Shown here in pieces: positions 12,172 through 60,160 of a stretch of DNA of 64,000 nucleotides. The position numbers and the translations under genes were made by a program. The notes beneath the pieces are model-generated. The model saw nothing but the letters and a program-made list of their open reading frames with translations. It did not search any database and was not told the DNA's origin. The stretch's first letter is position 1; each line of letters opens with the position of its first letter. Source of the stretch: a virus; IMG/VR virus record IMGVR_UViG_3300027770_000032. One strand, given 5' to 3'.

Positions 12172-12179
12172 TATTTATA
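12172..12179 (-). promoter_or_regulatory. T4-type late promoter TATAAATA driving the minus-strand modification operon
   Basis: TATTTATA on the + strand, ~30 nt upstream of the 12140 start. Confidence 0.7.
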
Positions 12180-12184
12180 CGTCT

Positions 12185-12192
12185 TATAAATA
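12185..12192 (+). promoter_or_regulatory. T4-type late promoter TATAAATA for gp13
   Basis: Exact consensus upstream of the neck gene. Confidence 0.8.
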
Positions 12193-12225: not shown

Positions 12226-12969
12226 ATGGCAACTCCTACTACAAAAGCGACATTTAAAGAGTATTGCCTTCGGAAGCTCGGCAAACCAGTCATTGAGATT
12301 AACGTCGACGATGATCAGGTAGATGATCGCATCGATGAAGCAATTCGTTACTGGTATGACTATCACTTCGATGGTTCAGAGAGAATATACTATAAGCATG
12401 CTATCACGTCAACTGACGTAACAAACAAGTATATCACTCTTCCAGAGAATATCATTGGTGCTGTCAGCATCTTCTCGATGGGTGATCCTTCGATTCGCTC
12501 TGACGACCTCTTTAATATTCGCTATCAGATCGCACTGAATGATATTTATACTTTGACAAACGTATCTCTTGTTCCATACTACATGGTCATGGAACATCTT
12601 GCACTCATGACTGAGCTTCTTGTTGGTAAACAACCTATTCGTTATTCTCGTCACAAAGATCGTCTTTATGTTGATATGGATTGGAATACAGTTGCTGTCG
12701 GTGAATTCTTACTCGTCGAAGCTTACGAAGTTGTAGATCCAGAAACATGGACAGATGCTTATAACGATCGTTGGCTTCAAAACTATGCTACGACTTTGAT
12801 TAAAGAACAATGGGGTTCGAATCTTACAAAGTTTACTGGAATGTCCTTACCGGGTGGAGTACAGTTTAACGGAGAGAAAATCTACAATGACGCGGTCGAC
12901 GCAAGAACTAAGATGGAACAAGAAATGATTTCATCTTATTCCCTTCCGGTTCTCGATATGATAGGTTAA
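12226..12969 (+). CDS. gp13: Neck protein
   Basis: YCLRKLG.PVIEINV.DDQ..DRIDEA...YHFDG; QWG.NL.KF.G..LPGGV. Confidence 0.95.
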   Translation: MATPTTKATFKEYCLRKLGKPVIEINVDDDQVDDRIDEAIRYWYDYHFDGSERIYYKHAITSTDVTNKYITLPENIIGAVSIFSMGDPSIRSDDLFNIRYQIALNDIYTLTNVSLVPYYMVMEHLALMTELLVGKQPIRYSRHKDRLYVDMDWNTVAVGEFLLVEAYEVVDPETWTDAYNDRWLQNYATTLIKEQWGSNLTKFTGMSLPGGVQFNGEKIYNDAVDARTKMEQEMISSYSLPVLDMIG

Positions 12970-48780: not shown

Positions 48781-49368
48781 ATGGTACAACGTATTAAGAT
48801 TAAAAGGTTTTGGGATATTGATGAGAATGTAGGTGATGAACTGAAAACTCTTGTTCCAAGTGTAACTTTTAAAACTCGTGTTAGAGATGACTTGATTGGC
48901 GGTGACAATCCATATCGCTGGGAAGATGTCACCACGTGGGATCTGTTCGCAGGTAAACGCGTGGTTCTTTTCTCCCTTCCTGGTGCATTCACTCCAACGT
49001 GTTCGACATATCAACTTCCTGGTTTCGAAGAGAAGTTTGCTGAATTCAAGGCTCTCGGAATTAAGGACATCTATTGTGTTTCGGTCAACGATGCGTTTGT
49101 GATGAATGCATGGGCGAAAGCACAGAAGGTGAAGAAAGTCAAGGTAATTCCTGACGGTTCAGGTAAGTTCACTCGTAAGATGGGTATGCTAGTTCATAAG
49201 GATAATCTCGGTTTTGGTGAACGCTCATGGCGTTACGCATGTGTCGTTAATAACGGTAAGATCGAGAAGTGGTTCATCGAACCAGGCGCAGAAGATAATT
49301 GCCCAGTCGATCCTTATGGTGAAACTGCTCCAGAAAACATCTTAAACTGGTTAAAAGAAAATGGATAA
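48781..49368 (+). CDS. Peroxiredoxin (Prx5/redoxin family)
   Basis: FSLPGAFTPTCS, SVNDAFVM.AW, PDGSG.FT, GFG.RSWRYA. Confidence 0.93.
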   Translation: MVQRIKIKRFWDIDENVGDELKTLVPSVTFKTRVRDDLIGGDNPYRWEDVTTWDLFAGKRVVLFSLPGAFTPTCSTYQLPGFEEKFAEFKALGIKDIYCVSVNDAFVMNAWAKAQKVKKVKVIPDGSGKFTRKMGMLVHKDNLGFGERSWRYACVVNNGKIEKWFIEPGAEDNCPVDPYGETAPENILNWLKENG

Positions 49369-50433: not shown

Positions 50434-50441
50434 TATAAATA
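50434..50441 (+). promoter_or_regulatory. Late promoter TATAAATA heading the curli/cyclase operon
   Basis: Exact consensus 6 nt before the ATG at 50447. Confidence 0.65.
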
Positions 50442-50446
50442 ATCGT

Positions 50447-50734
50447 ATGGGTTACGATACTATATTCAAAATTATTGGTGACGTCGGATTCCCCATCGCA
50501 GCAGCATTGCTCGGTGGGGTTTTCGTTTATTTTGTTATCAACTATATCCTTGAGAGTGTTGTAAAAGCAATCAGGGGCATGCAGGGTATTATCATGGGGC
50601 TTGACAATCGAGTCAAGACAATGAATCATGATATCATCCGTGTTGATGCTATAGTCAGTTCAGCTCTCGGTCTTCAGCCAGACCTTGACAGAATTGCCCG
50701 AGCAGACGGAAAGAACGATGCTCGGAAAGACTAA
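50447..50734 (+). CDS. Single-TM coiled-coil membrane protein (YvrJ/holin-like)
   Basis: IIGDVGFPIAAA TM segment followed by a coiled coil. Confidence 0.6.
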   Translation: MGYDTIFKIIGDVGFPIAAALLGGVFVYFVINYILESVVKAIRGMQGIIMGLDNRVKTMNHDIIRVDAIVSSALGLQPDLDRIARADGKNDARKD

Positions 50735-50985
50735 TGGATCCAGAACTGCTCGCAGAGCTTATAAAACAATACGGTTTTCCAATTGTCGCGTCTGTGGGAA
50801 TGGGATATTTTGTTTGGTTCATTTATAAGTTTGTCACAGATAAATTAATGCCATTGATTGGCGAAACTAACGGTATTTTAATTGCACTAATCGATCGTGT
50901 CCGTATGTTGGACAACGATCTCATTAGACTTCAACAGAAGGTGAGCGTTGTTTTACAGATAAAGGATCCTCATAATGACAATTAA
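50734..50985 (+). CDS. Paralogous single-TM membrane protein (YvrJ/holin-like)
   Basis: IKQYGFPIVAS TM; DRVRMLDNDLIR parallels DNRVKTMNHDIIR. Confidence 0.6.
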   Translation: MDPELLAELIKQYGFPIVASVGMGYFVWFIYKFVTDKLMPLIGETNGILIALIDRVRMLDNDLIRLQQKVSVVLQIKDPHNDN

Positions 50986-51056
50986 TTTAAAAATTGAGAT
51001 CCTTAAAGTATTCTGTCTTGAATTTGGATTTTCTTCTGAAAAGAAAGAGGAAAAAG

Positions 51057-51497
51057 ATGTTCAAGAAAATATTGATTTGCTCGATATTCTTCAGCAGCCC
51101 AGCGGCAGCTGATCCGCTCGTACAACAGTTTAAAAGTCCATCCTTTAATGGATATGGATGGTCGTCACATGTGCAATCAATCGATGCACAAGAACGTTCT
51201 CGTGAACAAGCAATCAAAGATGCTGAAGCCTCAAAGATTGCTCTTGCAAGAGCTGAAGCTTCGAATACGCCGCTTGCAAAGTTCATGGCACTATTCACCT
51301 CTCAGGTATATGCTCAGCTAGCCACACAGTTGTCAAACAATCTGTTTGCAGAAGGTTCGGCGCAACAAGGCATGTTTAATCTTGATGGTAACACGATTAG
51401 CTATGTAAAAACTGGTACATCAGTGACATTGACTGTCGTTGACAAATTTGGTAATACGACAGTCGTGACTGTTCCTATCGCAACGTTTGCATTTTAA
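51057..51497 (+). CDS. csgF: Curli assembly protein CsgF
   Basis: Signal peptide, then LVQQFKSPSFNG (compare CsgF F.NP.FGG); adjacent to csgG. Confidence 0.8.
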   Translation: MFKKILICSIFFSSPAAADPLVQQFKSPSFNGYGWSSHVQSIDAQERSREQAIKDAEASKIALARAEASNTPLAKFMALFTSQVYAQLATQLSNNLFAEGSAQQGMFNLDGNTISYVKTGTSVTLTVVDKFGNTTVVTVPIATFAF

Positions 51498-51506
51498 GGA
51501 GAAGTC

Positions 51507-52331
51507 ATGAAAAAGCTTTTATTACTTCCATTACTTCTTATCACAACGGCTTGTGCTGGAGGAGTGCATCCTCATCTCAATCAATCATATCTCGCAAGAG
51601 AAGATGCTGAAGTAGAAAGATTTGCAAATCCTAAGTTGTTTAGAACTCTACCAGAACTTGATGGTCAGGTAATTCCGATTGCCATCTACTCGTTCACTGA
51701 TAGAACAGGACAACGCAAACCTTCTGCTACTCAAGCCAGCTTCTCGACAGCCGTCACTCAAGGTGCAGATGCTTATGTTATTAAAACATTGGCAGATACT
51801 GGTGGAGGAAAATGGTTTCGACCAGTCGAGCGCGTAGGCATTGATTCGCTTATTAAAGAACGTCAACTCGTAAGACAGATGAGAGAGCAACAACTCGGAG
51901 AAGGTGCTGAACCACTTCCTCCTTTGATGGTTGCAGGTATCATCCTTGAAGGCGGTATTATTGACTATAGTTCAAATACCAAAACTGGTGGTAACGGTGC
52001 AAGATTCCTCGGAATCGGTCCTTATCAACAATATTCAGAAGATCAAGTTACTATTAGTATGCGACTCGTTTCGGTTCAGACAGGTGAAGTTTTAACTTCT
52101 GTCACCGTTGAGAAGAATCTACTCTCTACTTCCGAGGGAGTGACAGCATTTAAGTTTTTTGATGTGGGAACAAAAGCTTTTGAATTTGATGGACAACAAA
52201 CATCAAATGAAGCTGGTAGTTATGCAATCCGTTCAGCCATAGAAACGGCAGTTGTGGAATTAATCAAGGATGGTGAACGCAAAGGACTATGGAGATTTAA
52301 GCAAAAGGAATCAACAAATGAAGGTAATTAA
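51507..52331 (+). CDS. csgG: Curli secretion channel lipoprotein CsgG
   Basis: Lipobox TAC; Y.F.D.TGQRKP, FSTAVTQGA, WF.PVER.G...L.KERQ..R, EGGII.Y. Confidence 0.93.
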   Translation: MKKLLLLPLLLITTACAGGVHPHLNQSYLAREDAEVERFANPKLFRTLPELDGQVIPIAIYSFTDRTGQRKPSATQASFSTAVTQGADAYVIKTLADTGGGKWFRPVERVGIDSLIKERQLVRQMREQQLGEGAEPLPPLMVAGIILEGGIIDYSSNTKTGGNGARFLGIGPYQQYSEDQVTISMRLVSVQTGEVLTSVTVEKNLLSTSEGVTAFKFFDVGTKAFEFDGQQTSNEAGSYAIRSAIETAVVELIKDGERKGLWRFKQKESTNEGN

Positions 52332-53091
52332 GTCTTTATTAGTTGGTGCTGCTCTTCTTTATGGAACATCAGTGACTGCACAAACCGTGCTACCGACAGC
52401 CCCAACTCCACCAGCAATTGTAACTACATCACCAAATGAGGTGACTGCAGCTGCAGTGGCTACAACAAACAAAGTATATATCGATCAAGAAGGTGGCAAT
52501 GTAGATGTTAACGTTGTTCAAACTGGTACTGCTAATATCATTGGCGACAATGATGATCCTATCTATTTACGAGGTGATAATCAAAGTGTCATCGCTGTTC
52601 AAACCGGTAACGGAAACCAACTCTACATGGGCGTGGTCTCCGCTACAGGAGCAACAGGAATCACAGCAGTAACAGTTCGTCAAATCGGTAATCTCAACAC
52701 CGCAGACATCCGTTGCGGCACGCTTCAATCTGACGCTATCTGTAACAAGTTTGATCTGAATGCCAGATTTACAGGCGATTCAAACTCGCTCGTATTTCAT
52801 GGTTCAGGCGAAAACATTCGTAACTCGATGGATGTAACTGGTGATAATAATGCATTCAACATTGATGCACTCTCACCTAATGCAACTCAGACTCTTCTTG
52901 TCACAGGTGACTATAATGACTTCGACGTGACACAAACAGGTCTTGGCGGCACATTCGGTCATTCACTTTATGTGAACCTCACAGGTACACTTAACACCAT
53001 TACAACCCAACAGTACGGAGCTTCAGAAACCGTAATCAATATTAACTCGGCGGGTTCAAATGGTACGTTTAATATCAAGACTGGCCATTAA
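52318..53091 (+). CDS. Secreted curlin-repeat (CsgA/CsgB-like) protein
   Basis: Signal peptide; repeated xQxGxxN / TGDxN beta-arch units. Confidence 0.7.
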   Translation: MKVIKSLLVGAALLYGTSVTAQTVLPTAPTPPAIVTTSPNEVTAAAVATTNKVYIDQEGGNVDVNVVQTGTANIIGDNDDPIYLRGDNQSVIAVQTGNGNQLYMGVVSATGATGITAVTVRQIGNLNTADIRCGTLQSDAICNKFDLNARFTGDSNSLVFHGSGENIRNSMDVTGDNNAFNIDALSPNATQTLLVTGDYNDFDVTQTGLGGTFGHSLYVNLTGTLNTITTQQYGASETVININSAGSNGTFNIKTGH

Positions 53092-54196
53092 TCTATTACT
53101 TCTGATATCGGTTCCCGCCTTTGCAGGTGTGGGATCGATATCAGAGTTTCAGGGCGGAGGTTCCGTTAAGCGTGGTGCAAAGGTTGCACCTGCTGCTAAA
53201 GGCTCGAGTATCGAGAAGAACGATACCGTATCGACTAACTCTCAAGGTAGATTTAAGATTCGATTCGTTGATGCCACGATGGTAAACATCACACAAAATT
53301 CAAGGTTAATAATTGATGATTTCGTTTATGATGGAAATAATAAGAGTAAAGGCAAACTCGGTCTTAAACTGGCTTTGGGGACTGCAAGATATACTTCTGG
53401 CGGGATTGCTCATGGGAACTCTCGAGGTGTTGGAATACGTACTCCGACTGCGACGATTGCAGTCAGAGGCACAGACTTTGTTATGTCTGTTGATGAGGCA
53501 GGCAGATCGACTGTTGTTCTTGTTCCTGAATGTTACAACGATAAAGATATCACAAAGATCAACTTCGAATGCCCTTCAGGAGCTATCGATGTCATCACTG
53601 CTGCAGGCATCGTCACTCTGACTCAGCCATTCCAAGCAACGATGGTCGAGAATTCTTATGCGCCTCCTGCGCCTCCTGTCGTCATTAATCCTTCAATGAA
53701 GGGTATGGACAACAATATTCAGATCTCTCCTCTCGAAACGGATGACGGTCAATCACTGATCACTGCTGCTCGCGAAGCACTCAAGAAGTTTGTCAATCCT
53801 GCAAAAGCCGCTTCTGATGACAACCAAGATCCAAATACTGGCGGAGATGGCGTAGAAGAAGTTGCGGTGGCTACTCTTCGTTTGCCTACTCAAGACGAAC
53901 TTCAAAACATTTATGCAGAGTATAACTCTGGAGCAAGACCGACAGAAACTATCTATACGAATGTATCTCCTATATTTAAAAAACAAATGCAAGTCGGATG
54001 GGTGTACTCGAGAATCTCAGAAGATAAGAATCAAGTTGTCATAGTGTGGTTACCAAAAGATACTGAAATTCAAATGGTTTCATCTCATAATGGGATTGTC
54101 GACGCTTACAATTTTATGGATGATAAATGGACTACGACTGGTACAGGTAGACCACAAGGAAATATCACCGTGATACAAGAGTCGGGTGCAAGATGA
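53060..54196 (+). CDS. Secreted FecR-domain protein
   Basis: Signal peptide; I.F.D.T....NSRL.ID.FVY, IRTPTATIAVRGTDF. Confidence 0.8.
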   Translation: MVRLISRLAINLLLLISVPAFAGVGSISEFQGGGSVKRGAKVAPAAKGSSIEKNDTVSTNSQGRFKIRFVDATMVNITQNSRLIIDDFVYDGNNKSKGKLGLKLALGTARYTSGGIAHGNSRGVGIRTPTATIAVRGTDFVMSVDEAGRSTVVLVPECYNDKDITKINFECPSGAIDVITAAGIVTLTQPFQATMVENSYAPPAPPVVINPSMKGMDNNIQISPLETDDGQSLITAAREALKKFVNPAKAASDDNQDPNTGGDGVEEVAVATLRLPTQDELQNIYAEYNSGARPTETIYTNVSPIFKKQMQVGWVYSRISEDKNQVVIVWLPKDTEIQMVSSHNGIVDAYNFMDDKWTTTGTGRPQGNITVIQESGAR

Positions 54197-55653
54197 TGAG
54201 ATGGATCTTAACACTACTACTGTTAATGTTCAGCGTGCAGTTAAATGCACAGACACCATCAAACTATGGTTTTGAAGCTGGAACTTATGCTGGTTGGACA
54301 GCTAGTAACGGATCTACTACACTTCGTACGTCATGGAGCGATAGTGGCAACGGTGTACAAGTTACGACTGGAATGCAGAACTATTGCCCAGGCGGTGGTA
54401 AGTGTTGGACGATTACTCCATATGGATCGTACATGCTCTCGGTTCAAGCAGGAGGAAATTCTCCTCAATTTAATGCTGCAATGACTACTCTTGGACTGAG
54501 CGCTTCAAATATCACTTCTATTCGTAATACGATCTATTCGAATGGATCGATGAATCCTACGAACGCTTCTTCTGTCAGTCGAACAATATTCTTACAAGCA
54601 GGAATTACATATTCGTTTGGGTGGCAATATCTGTCGACAGACTATGTTCCGTATAACGACGGTTCTCTCATCACCTTGACAGGTGGACCAGGAACACCAA
54701 CACTCAACGGTCAAACACAGAACTTTGCGTTGTTAGGCTTTACGAATCCTGGAACGGGCAACTACTCGACCAATTCATATGGTGCTACTGGATGGCAGGT
54801 TGCTGTGTTCACAGTTCCGGCAGATGGCAACTATATGCTTGGATTCTCGTCGTTCAATCTTGGCGATACAGCTCTCTCACCTATTCTATTCATCGATCAG
54901 TTACAAGGAACTACGGCGTTGAATGGTACTACGTTTGCTCCTGTTGCACCTAACCAAGGATCTTCGGCACCGACTGCTCCACCTCCGCCTCCTGCAGAAC
55001 CAACATATCCAACTACATCAATTGCGACTAATCAAACTATTAAGCTTGGTCAGACAAATGCCATTGTAAGTAACTCAATTTACATTCAAAACATCGGTGA
55101 TAATAACACCGTCAACATCGAACAGTTCTCAAAATTTAACGCCGTAAGAGGTGTGAATGGTTCTCAATCGATGTTGATCAACGGTAGCAATAACGCTATT
55201 ACTATCAATCAAGGCACTGCAGCGGCAGCTCTTGGAAACAATCTTGCAGAAGTGTCTGTCACAGGAAACGGTAATACGGTATCTCTGACACAACAATATA
55301 ATGGCAAATATACAGAGCTAGTAATGAATGGAACAGGAAATCAGCTGACTGCTCAGCAAAAAGATGTTGGTGGAAAGTCTGCGTTCTTCAACATCTTAGG
55401 TAATTCGAACGTTATCACAACTACACAATCAGGTTCTGGTAATCACTTCTTAGATATCAGTGCACCTTATGGAGGATTGAATGCAACCATCACTCAATCT
55501 GGTGCTGCGCAGAAGCTGTTTAAACTAATAATAAATAATCCTGGAATTGGAGTCACTGTATCGCAAACTGCTGCGAGCGTTACTGACTCAGTCTTAATGT
55601 CAATCACATGTACGACCGGACCTTGCAATGGATACAGTTACGTTAAAAATTAA
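54193..55653 (+). CDS. Secreted protein: N-terminal beta-sandwich, Pro linker, C-terminal curlin repeats
   Basis: Signal peptide, GFE.G...GW domain, APPPPPAEP linker, QNIGDNN/TGNGN/QSGSGN repeats. Confidence 0.65.
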   Translation: MMRWILTLLLLMFSVQLNAQTPSNYGFEAGTYAGWTASNGSTTLRTSWSDSGNGVQVTTGMQNYCPGGGKCWTITPYGSYMLSVQAGGNSPQFNAAMTTLGLSASNITSIRNTIYSNGSMNPTNASSVSRTIFLQAGITYSFGWQYLSTDYVPYNDGSLITLTGGPGTPTLNGQTQNFALLGFTNPGTGNYSTNSYGATGWQVAVFTVPADGNYMLGFSSFNLGDTALSPILFIDQLQGTTALNGTTFAPVAPNQGSSAPTAPPPPPAEPTYPTTSIATNQTIKLGQTNAIVSNSIYIQNIGDNNTVNIEQFSKFNAVRGVNGSQSMLINGSNNAITINQGTAAAALGNNLAEVSVTGNGNTVSLTQQYNGKYTELVMNGTGNQLTAQQKDVGGKSAFFNILGNSNVITTTQSGSGNHFLDISAPYGGLNATITQSGAAQKLFKLIINNPGIGVTVSQTAASVTDSVLMSITCTTGPCNGYSYVKN

Positions 55654-57688
55654 AAAGATTCTATTGAGTCCATGGTTGGCACTCTTTACATTTGCATTAT
55701 TACTTGCATTTAAATTACAAGATCCATACTTAGTTGAAGCGACTCGTCTCAAATTTTATGATTACATCATGCTTGATAAAGCAAAACAATCTGAGCAGAT
55801 TGTAGTCATTAATTTAGGGGAGAAATCAATTGAAAAATATGGTCAGTGGCCTTTCCCGCGCGAAGTCCACGCTAAAATCATTGATGAGGTCTATGATAGA
55901 GGGGCTGCTCTTGTTGGCAGCACTGTACTTATGCTCGAGCCTGATCGCATGGGCACTGATAGTGTTCTTTCAGATAGCTTAAACAAATATCCAGTCGTTC
56001 TTAGTCAGACTGTAAGCGACTCTTGTTCTCGGGTAAGTACGACAATTCGGAAAACAGGCGTTGCCGTAATCGGCGATGGAGAAGCAACTGAATTTCTTCC
56101 TCAATACCCATGCGTTCTAAGTAATGTCTCAGTTCTTCAAGAAGCCGCAGCCGGTGTTGGGATAACGTCAACCCTACCTGAGACTGATGGGGTTGTGAGG
56201 CGAGTTCCTCTTCTATCTGAATCATCAGGCGAATACTATCCCGCATTTGCTCTAGAGCTGTTGCGTGTAGCGGCAGGAGACTCTTCGTATCAAGCCAAGA
56301 TAAATCAGACTGGGGTTGAAGCATTAAGAATTCCTTCTTTTGAAACAATTAAAACAGACGAATATGGAAGAGTGTTCATTAATCCGAACTATCGATTCCA
56401 GTCATACGAAATTGGCGAAGAAGTTCCTGATCTGACTGGTAAGATAGTGATTCTAGGCGTAACTGCCGCAGGAATTGCGAATCCTGTAGCGACTCCTTCA
56501 GGTGCGCAATATCCCCATCAATTGCAAGCGAGTATTCTTGAAACTCTGATAAATGGAGATTCTGTTTCGATTCCGAATTGGACACAGCTTGTAGATCTTG
56601 CTGCTCTTCTTGTTTTGGCTCTGTCATTAATCATGATCTCTCGATTAAAATACTCTATCGTTTGGATAGGTTTGATTCTAGGTGGATACCTTTATTTACC
56701 GGTGTATTTATTCGCGAGTAAAGGAATCTTGTTGGATGTCACTTTTAACGTGCTGGCCATCGCGATCATCTATATGCATATTTATACCGTAAAGTTTATT
56801 AGTGAGTTCATGCAGAAGCAACAAATCAAGAAACAGTTTGGCACATATCTAAGTCCAGATCTGGTCGCAAAGTTACAAAGACAACCAGATCTCTTGAAAC
56901 TCGGAGGAGAATCGCGCGAGCTTTCAATCATGTTCACAGACGTTCGTGGATTTACTACAATCTCTGAACACTATGGCGAAGATGTCCAAGGCCTCACATC
57001 AATCATGAATCGTTATATGACTGTCATGACAAGAGCGATTCTTGAAAACAACGGGACATTAGATAAGTATATCGGTGATGCACAGATGGCATTCTGGAAT
57101 GCGCCACTCGATAACAAACAGCATGCATTAGATGCAGTGAGAACATCCTTTCAGATGCTCAAAGATTTGGAGATATTTAATGAAGAAGTTAAAAGCGAAG
57201 GTATACCCGCTTTTGGGATGGGTCTTGGTATTAACACTGCCACTGTGGTTGTTGGCAATATGGGCAGTACTCAGCGTTTTGACTATACTTGCCTGGGTGA
57301 TGGCGTTAATCTGGCTGCTCGTTTGGAAGGTCAATCCAAGCCTTATGGGGTCAAACTTGTCGTCGGGCCACAAACTGCCGAATTGGTTAGGGATGTATAC
57401 CAAGTAGTTGAGCTTGATCTCATTGCCGTAAAAGGTAAGACAGAACCCGCCAGAATCTATACCATTTTTGATGTTACTGATGGAGCAGGAGACCTCCTAC
57501 ATAAAAAGTTCCTCGAACTCTATCGTCAAGGCAAATGGGATGCAGCTATCAATATGATAAAAGATCTGAAGCGTTGCTGGAACGAAGATCTGAATGCATA
57601 CTACGAGATGATGGAGAAACGCATTCAAGATTTGAAGATTGAAGAACCATATAAATGGGACGGAATTTATCGCGCAACCTCAAAATAA
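55628..57688 (+). CDS. CHASE2-domain membrane adenylate cyclase (class III)
   Basis: GQWPFPR, DGVVRR.P (CHASE2), TM bundle, FTDVRGFT, DKYIGDA, YTCLGDGVNLAARLE. Confidence 0.93.
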   Translation: MDTVTLKIKKILLSPWLALFTFALLLAFKLQDPYLVEATRLKFYDYIMLDKAKQSEQIVVINLGEKSIEKYGQWPFPREVHAKIIDEVYDRGAALVGSTVLMLEPDRMGTDSVLSDSLNKYPVVLSQTVSDSCSRVSTTIRKTGVAVIGDGEATEFLPQYPCVLSNVSVLQEAAAGVGITSTLPETDGVVRRVPLLSESSGEYYPAFALELLRVAAGDSSYQAKINQTGVEALRIPSFETIKTDEYGRVFINPNYRFQSYEIGEEVPDLTGKIVILGVTAAGIANPVATPSGAQYPHQLQASILETLINGDSVSIPNWTQLVDLAALLVLALSLIMISRLKYSIVWIGLILGGYLYLPVYLFASKGILLDVTFNVLAIAIIYMHIYTVKFISEFMQKQQIKKQFGTYLSPDLVAKLQRQPDLLKLGGESRELSIMFTDVRGFTTISEHYGEDVQGLTSIMNRYMTVMTRAILENNGTLDKYIGDAQMAFWNAPLDNKQHALDAVRTSFQMLKDLEIFNEEVKSEGIPAFGMGLGINTATVVVGNMGSTQRFDYTCLGDGVNLAARLEGQSKPYGVKLVVGPQTAELVRDVYQVVELDLIAVKGKTEPARIYTIFDVTDGAGDLLHKKFLELYRQGKWDAAINMIKDLKRCWNEDLNAYYEMMEKRIQDLKIEEPYKWDGIYRATSK

Positions 57689-57691
57689 ACA

Positions 57692-57731
57692 TGTACATTA
57701 ATCCATTTTCATGATAGGATGAACCTATAAT
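57692..57731 (+). promoter_or_regulatory. TGTACA-N17-TAGGAT promoter with second TATAAT
   Basis: Near-copy of the 34704 cassette. Confidence 0.7.
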
Positions 57732-57747
57732 GATGAAGGACGAAAAC

Positions 57748-58215
57748 ATGAATATCACGATTACCGGCATGATTGGCAAGCGCAAAGAGAAAGCCCTTCT
57801 GAAGGAAGCCGCAGAGTTTTTTGCCGATCAGTTGATGGATCCTCGCATGGTTCGCAACCTCACCCTCGACATCGAAGTTTACAATAACCTTGACGTTGAA
57901 GGCGAATGCGTCGATGAAGATGGTTTTCGCAATCCTCGGTGGTTCACCATCGGCCTGAAGAGCCAAGACATCAAAGACATGATCAAGACTCTTGGCCATG
58001 AAATGGTGCACGTCAAGCAACATGCCAAGAACGAACTTCAGACTGGCCATGCAGTTGCTGCACGCGGCGGTCTCAAAATCTACAGCAAGTGGATGGGTGA
58101 AGTTTGGAAAGCAAAACGTAAAGAAGATGATTACTTTGACTCTCCTTGGGAGATCGAAGCGTATGGCCGTGAAGTCGGTCTTTATGCAAAGTGGGTTCAA
58201 TATAAAGGAAATTGA
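57748..58215 (+). CDS. Zincin-type metallopeptidase-like protein
   Basis: HEMVHVKQ and PWEIEAY. Confidence 0.75.
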   Translation: MNITITGMIGKRKEKALLKEAAEFFADQLMDPRMVRNLTLDIEVYNNLDVEGECVDEDGFRNPRWFTIGLKSQDIKDMIKTLGHEMVHVKQHAKNELQTGHAVAARGGLKIYSKWMGEVWKAKRKEDDYFDSPWEIEAYGREVGLYAKWVQYKGN

Positions 58216-58767: not shown

Positions 58768-59178
58768 ATGACTGAACGTGTAGGTATCGTAGCAAGTTGT
58801 TTTGATTTGTTTCATGCAGGTCATATCCTGATGCTGATGGAAGCAAAGGGGAAATGTGATCGGTTGGTCGTGGCTTTGCAGTCAGATCCTACGATTGATC
58901 GACCTGAGAAGAACAAGCCAGTTCAAGCAATGTTTGAGCGCTATGTACAACTCGAAGCATGCAAGTATGTCGATCAAATAATCCCTTATGATACAGAAGC
59001 TGATCTGCTAAACCTACTGTCAGGTTACGATTGGGACGTTCGTTTCCTTGGTATGGATTACATTGATCGGACAGAATTTACTGGATCCTATCTCGATATT
59101 CCTATCCACTACTGCAGCCGTAGGCACAACTATAGTTCATCTGGTTTGCGTGAACGTATTTTGAAAGCAAAGAAATGA
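58768..59178 (+). CDS. Cytidylyltransferase (TagD-like)
   Basis: FDLFHAGH (HxGH), YSSSGLR.RI. Confidence 0.88.
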   Translation: MTERVGIVASCFDLFHAGHILMLMEAKGKCDRLVVALQSDPTIDRPEKNKPVQAMFERYVQLEACKYVDQIIPYDTEADLLNLLSGYDWDVRFLGMDYIDRTEFTGSYLDIPIHYCSRRHNYSSSGLRERILKAKK

Positions 59179-59618
59179 GTAAGTGGGCAGCACGATTCCT
59201 CGATCTTGCTGACCATGTCGCGACATGGTCAAAGGATCCTCGGACACAAGTAGGATGCGTCATCGTAGATAAGCACAATCGTATCGTCTCTCTCGGTTTT
59301 AATGGCTTTCCTCGTGGTGTGAACGATCTTGCACAGAGATACAATGATAGACCGACGAAACATCTGTTCGTAGCTCACGCCGAGCGAAATGCACTCGATA
59401 ATGCTCCGTTGTCTGTTGAAGGTTGTACGCTTTATAGTCCTCTGCTACCTTGTAGCGAATGCGCAAAGAGCATCATTCAGAAAGGAATTACGAAGGTTGT
59501 ATCATACGAACCAGATGAAGACGTTGAACATTTTCACTGGGATATCACAAAACAAATGTTTTTAGAAGCATGTGTTCAACTTTATCTGATAAATAAAACT
59601 GTCACGCCTAATGGGTGA
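59175..59618 (+). CDS. dCMP deaminase
   Basis: SKDP.TQVG, G.NG.PRG, HAERNA, PC.EC. Confidence 0.92.
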   Translation: MSKWAARFLDLADHVATWSKDPRTQVGCVIVDKHNRIVSLGFNGFPRGVNDLAQRYNDRPTKHLFVAHAERNALDNAPLSVEGCTLYSPLLPCSECAKSIIQKGITKVVSYEPDEDVEHFHWDITKQMFLEACVQLYLINKTVTPNG

Positions 59619-59653
59619 CACAACTAAACTCGCTTAATAGGAGAATGAGTATG
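59600..59653 (+). promoter_or_regulatory. ROSE-like RNA thermometer in the sHSP leader
   Basis: TGTCAC/GTGACA hairpin, then CTCGCT-TAAT-AGGAG hairpin with a bulged G sequestering the SD. Confidence 0.55.
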
Positions 59654-60160
59654 TTTAATAATATCAAGGATTTCGATCGCTTTTTTGTAGGCTTCGATCC
59701 AATCGTAAAGAGAATGTCAGAAGCTGCAGAGCAGACTGTCAAGGCAGCTCAAAACTATCCCCCATACAATATCAAGAAGATTGATGAGAACAAGTATCTT
59801 ATCGAGATGGCTGTTGCTGGTTTCGGTAAGCAGGATCTCGAAATCGAGCTTGCAGAAGATAAGCTAATCATCAAAGGTAATGTTCAGTCTGGAGAACCTG
59901 CAGAGCAGGATTCGAAGGGCGAATGGACATGGCCTGCATTCCTCTATCAAGGACTTGCGAATCGCCCATTTACTCGCACGTTTAATCTCGCGGATAATGT
60001 AGAGATTCGTAACGCATCTCTTCTGAATGGTATTCTCAAGATTGCTCTCGAAGCAATTATTCCTGAGCATAAGAAACCAAAGAAGATCCATATTCAGGAT
60101 CCAGACGAAGAATATCCGTCGCAAGCTGCCGAATTCTTGGCAGAAGGTAAAACGAAGTAA
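59651..60160 (+). CDS. Small heat-shock protein (Hsp20/IbpA-like)
   Basis: FVGFD, YPPYNI, IE.AVAGF, G.A.R.F.R.F.LA, NG.L.I.L, PE.KKP..I.I. Confidence 0.95.
   Translation: MFNNIKDFDRFFVGFDPIVKRMSEAAEQTVKAAQNYPPYNIKKIDENKYLIEMAVAGFGKQDLEIELAEDKLIIKGNVQSGEPAEQDSKGEWTWPAFLYQGLANRPFTRTFNLADNVEIRNASLLNGILKIALEAIIPEHKKPKKIHIQDPDEEYPSQAAEFLAEGKTK

Follow-up and report, generated by a model that had tools for sequence, protein, structure and literature searches.

Curli-type (type VIII) secretion genes are known from phages of SAR11 and OM43 bacteria. Two accounts discussed only the CsgG/CsgF pore and stated that csgA and csgB were missing (PMC7029224, PMC9004378). In 2022 the whole module was reported in SAR11 and OM43 phages, including podophages and myophages, in the order one or two small genes (termed histidine kinases), CsgF, CsgG, CsgA/B, FecR, often a second CsgA/B, and adenylate cyclase; this study also noted affinities to Alphaproteobacteria, gene transfer across virus families, and metatranscriptomic evidence of expression (PMC9599517). 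The words CHASE, NsrA, PA14, lectin, signal peptide, and promoter are absent from that paper. Here we analyzed a related block at positions 50434–57688 (+ strand) of a 64,000-nucleotide (nt) stretch of DNA from an uncultured T4-like phage, IMG/VR record IMGVR_UViG_3300027770_000032, which is referred to as the window throughout. Judged from its sequence, this block is a real, selected, and late-expressed module that belongs to the viral curli kind already published, and the identity of its parts is near certain.

The original prediction for this DNA described csgF and csgG as known from pelagimyophages, in agreement with the record of Pelagibacter phage HTVC008M and with the published module. 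The link from curli secretion to a FecR/cyclase pair, which it offered as new, had been published in 2022 (PMC9599517). What is added here beyond the published accounts is the class IIIb CHASE2 identity of the cyclase, the export of the FecR protein, the swappable heads of one curlin protein, the block-wise recombination of the locus, and a pairing of CsgG-like and CHASE2 genes in Bacteroidota. For the window itself the gain is mainly a correct annotation, in which two published labels are corrected (FecR as iron regulator and the small genes as histidine kinases).

Gene Content and Comparison with Cultured Phages

Eight open reading frames (ORFs), all intact and all on the + strand, follow the motif TATAAATA. 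The features are as follows, with protein lengths in amino acids (aa):

50434..50441, + strand: T4-type late promoter motif TATAAATA, 5 nt upstream of the first ATG, near-leaderless
50447..50734, + strand: small membrane protein 1, 95 aa; phrog_18771 (2e-29); GFPI motif, one hydrophobic helix, C-terminal helical region
50734..50985, + strand: small membrane protein 2, 83 aa; phrog_18771 (2.7e-28); start overlaps the stop of protein 1 (TAATG)
51057..51497, + strand: CsgF homologue, 146 aa; PF10614 (1e-16); signal peptide with the ATG 51057 start; longest ORF from TTG 50994
51507..52331, + strand: CsgG outer-membrane channel lipoprotein, 274 aa; PF03783 (1.2e-52) over the full model; lipobox Cys
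52318 (alternatively 52270)..53091, + strand: curlin-repeat protein 1, 257 aa; signal peptide, Q/N/G ladder
53060..54196, + strand: exported FecR-domain protein, 378 aa; PF04773 (2e-12); signal peptide, FecR/PupR-type fold at about 25–225, divergent C-terminal part
54193..55653, + strand: curlin-repeat protein 2, 486 aa; signal peptide, beta-sandwich head at about 22–250, Pro-rich linker, curlin-type beta-solenoid at about 291–486
55628..57688, + strand: CHASE2 receptor adenylate cyclase, class IIIb, 686 aa; transmembrane (TM) segment, periplasmic CHASE2, three TM segments, catalytic domain, short C-tail

This inventory bears out what had been proposed from the letters alone, namely a late promoter, two paralogous single-TM proteins, csgF, csgG, a curlin-repeat protein, a FecR-domain protein, and a fusion of a beta-sandwich with curlin repeats, in a co-oriented and mostly overlapping arrangement. 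Five junctions overlap, by 1, 14, 32, 4, and 26 nt, and the genes at the other two are spaced by 71 and 9 nt. The block and the sequence directly 3' of it contain no convincing terminator. The motif TATAAATA occurs 12 times in the window (3.25 expected; none of 100 shuffles reached 12). Of 29 distinct relatives, 20 have it 4–8 nt upstream of the start codon (ATG) of the first small gene, and another has it 34 nt upstream. The upstream DNA of the relatives that keep the motif is otherwise unrelated. In three inspected loci from which the small-protein pair has moved away, csgF carries a TATAAATA of its own. At the level of sequence, this arrangement shows a late promoter that would drive a translationally coupled operon. 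Pairwise ratios of nonsynonymous to synonymous substitution rates (dN/dS) of 0–0.19 across all eight genes point to purifying selection. Elsewhere in the window, three copies of TATAAATA fall inside 380 nt (12172–12192 and 12543–12550); two of them stand back to back on opposite strands and form a possible divergent late promoter pair.

A tblastn search found the cyclase and CsgG together in HTVC008M and in four Melnitz phages of OM43, and the GenBank records of these phages contain the same eight genes in the same order, with names such as CsgF, CsgG, curlin repeat protein, FecR domain protein, and adenylate cyclase. HTVC008M (NC_020484 7181–13807) and Melnitz (MZ577097 50118–56876) thus share with the window the gene order, the two small genes, the optional second curlin gene, and the cyclase. 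The absence of CsgE, CsgC, and CsgD is also common to the window and the pelagiphage module. The window differs from the cultured phages in protein identity, which is only 40–52%, and its G+C content of about 42% is listed as a further difference from cultured pelagiphages. A megablast search of the region against cultured phages gave no match.

Curli Export Genes and Putative Fiber Proteins

The start of CsgF is probably ATG 51057, which we prefer because it results in a signal peptide. Within the N-terminal CsgG-binding stretch (FQFRNPNFGG in E. coli vs QQFKSPSFNG), the P, F, and G of E. coli CsgF are invariant in phage and bacterial sequences; the Asn-rich constriction residues are not conserved. 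CsgG is 38% identical to E. coli CsgG, with 44 invariant columns, and its constriction loop is altered in that the positions of Tyr51 and Asn55 are replaced and the Phe is kept. None of the eight block proteins gave a Pfam or PHROG match to CsgE, CsgC/CsgH, or CsgD. CsgE, CsgC, and CsgD are likewise missing from alphaproteobacterial systems (PMC9599517).

When the 273-aa and 486-aa ORFs were scanned singly, their curlin-repeat matches were weak and under the Pfam cutoff. Family profiles were more informative for curlin 1, the start of which is most likely ATG 52318, giving a predicted signal peptide. A profile of 23 homologues contains 25 invariant Q, N, G, and I positions at curlin-repeat spacing and matches E. 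coli CsgA (hhalign 93.8%, E 1.7e-7), the solved Pontibacter curlin 8c50 (4.7e-7), and the E. coli CsgA fibril 8enq (1e-3). Pfam Curlin_rpt was detected in 13 of the 23 family members. The modeled tail of curlin 2 is a beta-solenoid with Pontibacter CsgA 8c50 as its best fold match (Z 15.3, 20% identity), and this C-terminal repeat region is conserved among relatives. The models of curlin 2 and of the FecR protein, both of moderate confidence (pLDDT 63 and 57), returned no Foldseek match at E 0.001 or better. On profile and model evidence, the putative fiber proteins are real curlins.

The heads of curlin 2 tell a different story from its tail. In the window, the modeled head has a weak likeness to carbohydrate-binding modules (CBMs) and to gingipain adhesin domains. 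A PA14 domain occupies this place in HTVC008M gp018 (L002 6639–7964) and in two further loci (L045 5266–6420 and L119 12863–14206; 2.7e-6 to 5e-14), so that the CBM-like head of the window contrasts with PA14 in HTVC008M, and L029 and L048 have a third kind of head. Since unrelated heads are found among relatives that keep the curlin tail, the head has been swapped between lineages. Within its type, the head is strongly constrained and showed no sign of diversifying selection (dN/dS 0.05–0.07). Curlin 2 looks like a predicted fiber subunit that displays a binding domain, because its tail is conserved while its head varies by lineage and is constrained within its type. The gene is optional, being present in 25 of the 45 cyclase-seeded loci described below. 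Extra DNA of 0.6–2.5 kb lies between curlin 2 (fecR in L120) and the cyclase gene in L084 (13364–13936), L119 (14206–16694), and L120, and the junction before the cyclase gene seems to be a preferred insertion site.

These proteins bear directly on the proposal, made in PMC9004378 and partly in PMC7029224, that CsgG and CsgF are a repurposed pore that makes no fibers and acts as a pinholin- or secretin-like lysis timer or as an uptake channel. The absence of the CsgE gate from the block, the changed constriction loop of CsgG, the late expression inferred from TATAAATA, and the lack of clumping in Melnitz infections are all consistent with such a role. The pore papers took csgA and csgB as missing, however, whereas the block encodes two exported and conserved curlin-repeat proteins (dN/dS about 0.06–0.10) that match solved curlins, and lectin-like heads would be pointless for a bare pore. 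We therefore consider a fiberless pore very unlikely.

CHASE2 Cyclase and FecR-Domain Protein

The last gene of the block encodes a receptor-type cyclase with PF05226 (1.9e-38) at residues 24–332, PF00211 (3e-17), and hydrophobic segments at about 8–30 and 317–390. Its best solved relative is CyaB from P. aeruginosa (3r5g, 2e-32). Alignment with CyaB assigns D438 and D484 to metal binding, K480 and T554 to the substrate, and N561 and R565 to the transition state. Among 72 homologues, including that of HTVC008M and two from bacteria, D438, K480, D484, and R565 never vary, and T554 is found in 67 and N561 in 70. The VKG motif at residues 601–603 also aligns with CyaB, and G603 is invariant (72 of 72). 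Constraint is strongest on the catalytic domain (dN/dS 0.04–0.08) and looser on the CHASE2 domain (0.17–0.25). With a complete active site, the enzyme is predicted to make cyclic AMP (cAMP). The expectation of an intact CHASE2 class III cyclase with an ATP-selecting lysine holds for its intactness and for Lys480, but the substrate pair is Lys480/Thr554, as in class IIIb, and not Lys/Asp.

The FecR domain of the neighboring protein begins directly after a cleavable signal peptide. The model of residues 21–232 resembles the periplasmic signaling domain of PupR (6ovm, Z 9.6), an anti-sigma factor (4m0h, Z 8.0), and the N-terminal cell-surface anchoring domain of a Marinomonas RTX adhesin (5ix9, Z 6.9, 27% identity); all other chains scored Z 4.4 or less. 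These three domains are all periplasmic and work against an outer-membrane partner. Nearly all of the 37 invariant columns of the FecR family lie in the N-terminal domain. Pfam and sequence inspection revealed no cytoplasmic anti-sigma domain, membrane anchor, tetratricopeptide repeat (TPR), or barrel in this protein. A tblastn search against plasmids returned nothing at 1e-8, and a protein homologue search gave, among the matches listed, close phage relatives only.

The model of the C-terminal part (residues 226–378) is not reliable. The sole invariant residue of this part is a Gln in a terminal I-x-V/I-x-Q strand (window 54166–54193). We compared this strand with curlin repeats, and the likeness was not supported (hhalign probability 2.4%).

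Bacterial Counterparts of the Two Modules

As the original prediction stated, rhizobia provide a precedent for signaling by a FecR-domain protein and a CHASE2 cyclase. On pSymB of Sinorhizobium meliloti, the gene for a 1190-aa protein lies immediately upstream of cyaK, the start of which overlaps its end. This protein has a FecR domain at its N-terminus and TPR repeats, and it weakly matches an outer-membrane barrel; from its position we take it to be NsrA. NsrA is an outer-membrane protein that the CHASE2 cyclases CyaK and CyaD1/D2 require to answer an external protein signal (PMC7529298, PMC13001267). The profile of the phage FecR family matched the FecR module of the S. meliloti protein (hhalign 95.5%, E 1.4e-8).

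Only two plasmid-borne cyclases, from Shinella and Paracoccus, aligned over more than 90% of the phage protein, and both genes are directly preceded by a co-oriented gene for a FecR-domain protein, with a gene for a TPR protein as well. The phage block thus shares with NsrA–CyaK and with the Shinella and Paracoccus loci a FecR-domain gene upstream of a CHASE2 class III cyclase gene of like architecture, and in phage loci without curlin 2, fecR abuts the cyclase gene as it does in the bacterial pairs. The FecR proteins differ in size (655–1190 aa in bacteria vs 378 aa in the phage) and in their accessory parts. TPR repeats are inside the protein in S. meliloti, encoded by a separate upstream gene in Shinella and Paracoccus, and absent from the phage protein, which also lacks the barrel match that is weakly detectable in the S. 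meliloti protein. On the Paracoccus aminophilus plasmid pAMI5, a gene for a cyclic-nucleotide-binding patatin-like phospholipase (L128 167–1993) stands divergently beside the TPR–FecR–CHASE2 triplet; its product could serve the bacterial module as a cAMP effector.

These comparisons also bear on the reading given in PMC9599517, in which FecR would be an iron regulator of the ferric citrate type that controls viral secretion and the small genes would be histidine kinases. The Pfam family name and the limitation of iron in the ocean speak for it. The phage protein is exported, however, with a signal peptide followed by the FecR domain and with neither anti-sigma part nor membrane anchor, and it matches the FecR module encoded upstream of cyaK, the pairing with CHASE2 cyclases being the nearest characterized context. 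For these reasons we regard iron regulation as most improbable. The kinase label fails as well, since the small proteins have 83–95 aa and no HisKA or ATPase domain, and 77 sequences contain no His column common to the two paralogues.

The curli part has bacterial counterparts of its own. It shares with alphaproteobacterial curli operons the order csgF, csgG, and small secreted repeat proteins, with CsgG 44–50% identical. Those operons contain CsgH and lack CsgE, CsgC, and CsgD, whereas the phage has no CsgH. The FecR protein, the CHASE2 cyclase, and the small membrane pair of the phage have no equivalents at the three alphaproteobacterial curli loci inspected. Because the bacterial contexts show each module separately, the block is best interpreted as the union of an alphaproteobacterial-type curli operon with a FecR–CHASE2 cyclase pair, the FecR protein of which has been stripped of its outer-membrane part.

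A comparable sensor arrangement is the 'BiofilmReg' operon of Burkholderia (PA4035–PA4036 type), in which an exported LysM–FecR protein is encoded with a CHASE2 histidine kinase (PMC5192318). An exported FecR-domain protein and a CHASE2 membrane sensor in one operon are common to both systems. The output in Burkholderia is a histidine kinase with a response regulator, its FecR protein carries LysM, and curli genes are absent; in the phage the output is a cyclase.

A genome scan with the FecR protein returned only one contig, L122 (RGCF01000015.1, 46.6 kb), from a metagenome-assembled genome (MAG) labeled 'Bacteroidetes bacterium'. It encodes a FecR protein 71% identical to that of the window, with CsgG and CHASE2 alongside, and it holds the sole CHASE2 match of that MAG. 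L122 is probably a phage contig that was binned into a bacterial MAG.

We also sampled 301 genomes of the phylum of this MAG, the Bacteroidota, and matches to the CsgG family and to CHASE2 coexist in 46 of them. The two genes are 1–3.5 kb apart in at least 12 of the 46 genomes, vs about 0.5 expected by chance, a count that overstates independent events in that the genomes are related. Ten such CsgG-like/CHASE2 loci (L131–L140, in genomes G165, G113, G185, G233, G293, G237, G069, G285, G265, and G057) were inspected. Their CHASE2 proteins are full-length relatives of the phage cyclase (330–407 bits), and a TPR-containing protein is often encoded just 5' of the cyclase gene. The CsgG-family proteins are small and lipoprotein-like and match only the N-terminal half of the family; LpoB was matched too. 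Hidden Markov models (HMMs) of FecR, CsgF, and curlin found nothing at the ten loci, and an 832-aa neighbor encoded there is not FecR-like. Our literature search found no description of this pairing, which shows that CHASE2 cyclases accompany outer-membrane-side proteins in two phyla.

Linkage of the Two Modules and a Proposed Mechanism

Cyclase relatives are found on more than 585 IMG/VR contigs. We examined linkage in 45 cyclase-seeded loci with at least 6 kb of upstream sequence and in 27 csgG-seeded loci with enough downstream sequence. In 42 of the former, csgF, csgG, curlin 1, and fecR lie upstream of the cyclase gene on the same strand, and in the remaining three only the curlin-1 match went undetected. 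All 27 csgG-seeded loci have fecR and the cyclase gene downstream of csgG. The survey of operon conservation that had been suggested thus found the genes kept together in relatives. fecR directly adjoins the cyclase gene in 20 of the 45 loci; in the window, the two are separated by curlin 2, the frame of which overlaps both.

Pairwise identities across 47 distinct loci revealed that this linkage is not uniform. fecR co-diverges with csgG, csgF, and curlin 1 (Spearman 0.74–0.89); therefore csgF–csgG–curlin–fecR is exchanged as a unit, apart from the cyclase gene. This exchange ties FecR to the curli part, and it implies that one and the same CHASE2 domain operates with highly dissimilar FecR proteins, perhaps by way of the invariant core of FecR. 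Two loci illustrate the pattern:

L017 vs window: CsgG 46%, FecR N-domain 43%, CHASE2 periplasmic domain 84%
L052 vs window: CsgG 70%, FecR N-domain 69%, CHASE2 periplasmic domain 67%

The small-protein pair is about 90% identical in loci with curli genes about 45% identical and is thus a separate block.

In the best explanation, to which we give an even chance, the state of a curli-type export apparatus, or the contacts of its fibers, would be relayed by the FecR-fold protein to the CHASE2 cyclase. The coupling of the curli apparatus to the cyclase, taken by itself, we rate as possible and at most evenly balanced. It is proposed because of the domain architecture, the rhizobial precedent, and the linkage of the genes. 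Late in infection the cell would be given a CsgG/CsgF pore, through which the two curlin proteins would be exported to form surface fibers, some of them tipped with a glycan-binding head. The FecR-fold protein would remain periplasmic, dock on the CsgG apparatus or its cargo, and signal the state of the outer envelope to CHASE2; this docking is suggested because the phage FecR protein is devoid of the outer-membrane part carried by the S. meliloti protein. The state of CHASE2 would then set the synthesis of cAMP, which would act on host proteins. Cell-to-cell adhesion, receptor masking, and timing of the end of infection are candidate gains for the phage. The surface amyloid antenna reporting to cAMP that the original prediction put forward would be compatible with these findings.

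Several observations weigh against this mechanism. The three FecR–CHASE2 plasmids contain no CsgG, their loci are also without CsgF or curlin, and neither FecR nor CHASE2 occurs at the three inspected alphaproteobacterial plasmid curli loci. The modules are thus separate in the bacterial replicons inspected, so that their joining may be specific to phages and need not be functional. The divergence of fecR follows that of the periplasmic CHASE2 domain only loosely (Spearman 0.27–0.48), and CHASE2 domains that are 76–84% identical are paired with FecR proteins about 40% identical; recombination that separates fecR from the cyclase gene weakens the case for a tightly co-evolved FecR–CHASE2 interface. 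A search of HTVC008M, Melnitz, and three large IMG/VR genomes that carry the block (one rated complete) for the cyclic-nucleotide-binding domain PF00027 gave no match, GAF and other receptor types not having been searched; any cAMP receptor would therefore be encoded by the host or be of another type. Some podophage modules have FecR and no cyclase (PMC9599517), and infected OM43 cultures did not clump (PMC9004378).

The separation of the modules in bacteria, the recombination boundary between fecR and the cyclase gene, and the reported modules without cyclase speak for the main alternative, namely that curli fibers or adhesin on the one hand and the FecR–CHASE2 sensor on the other are independent, were captured in the same variable region, and are co-inherited by adjacency only. 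This is harder to reconcile with the strict collinearity of the genes, which extends to two virus families (PMC9599517) and holds in 42 of 45 and 27 of 27 of the loci surveyed, with the insertion of the optional curlin 2 between fecR and the cyclase gene in overlapping frames, and with the inheritance of fecR together with the curli genes and not with its supposed sensor partner. We judge independence of the two modules to be rather unlikely.

A more specific form of the coupling mechanism, which we consider decidedly unlikely, would be a sensor similar to NsrA–CyaK in which CsgG/CsgF and a lectin-tipped fiber replace the outer-membrane part of FecR. Contact with a cell, a glycan, or a phage would then raise cAMP late and tune the end of infection, and the Bacteroidota pairing would belong to a general, undescribed class of envelope signaling.

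The block is among the most widespread nonstructural gene sets of aquatic T4-like phages, and through it infected cells acquire an outer-membrane secretion system, which SAR11 and OM43, the known hosts, lack. If the FecR–CHASE2 pair does read the apparatus, it would be the first phage-encoded second-messenger sensor that connects the surface to the cytoplasm, and a tractable model for CHASE2 receptors.

Small Membrane Proteins and Neighboring Genes

The two small proteins at the operon head are paralogous (30% identity, E 1e-13), and each has one N-terminal hydrophobic helix. Protein 1 is constrained (dN/dS 0.03–0.15). Pfam detected no domain in either protein, and a feature-based Atlas search returned only nameless viral proteins. 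The pair stands at the operon head in 40 of the 45 cyclase-seeded loci and on the opposite strand downstream of the cyclase gene in four. Among 50,697 cultured phage records, it is restricted to the six that carry the block.

This pair had been put forward as a holin-like effector of cAMP, an assignment for which we found no support. In its explicit form, the pair would be a holin and antiholin under the control of cyclase-derived cAMP. Such a role would suit two paralogous proteins with a single hydrophobic helix each, encoded first in a late operon and found only alongside the block, and there is a weak match to the PHROG holin family phrog_4898 (E 0.0046, over 19 residues only). Neither protein, however, has a nucleotide-binding domain, and the genes are found on the opposite strand 3' of the cyclase gene in at least nine loci, among them L066, L068–L072, L119, and L120. 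The pair is also absent from T4-like phages without the curli block; therefore these are not general lysis genes of this phage group. A cAMP-controlled holin pair is accordingly a highly improbable reading.

The neighbors of the block in the window (48781–49368, 57730–58215, and 58768–60160) are unlike those in HTVC008M and Melnitz. On the upstream side is a peroxiredoxin-like gene. Downstream, where HTVC008M and Melnitz have tail genes, the window contains same-strand (+) non-tail genes, namely a phrog_10499 gene, a heptose kinase/adenylyltransferase-like gene, a dCMP deaminase gene, and an Hsp20 gene.

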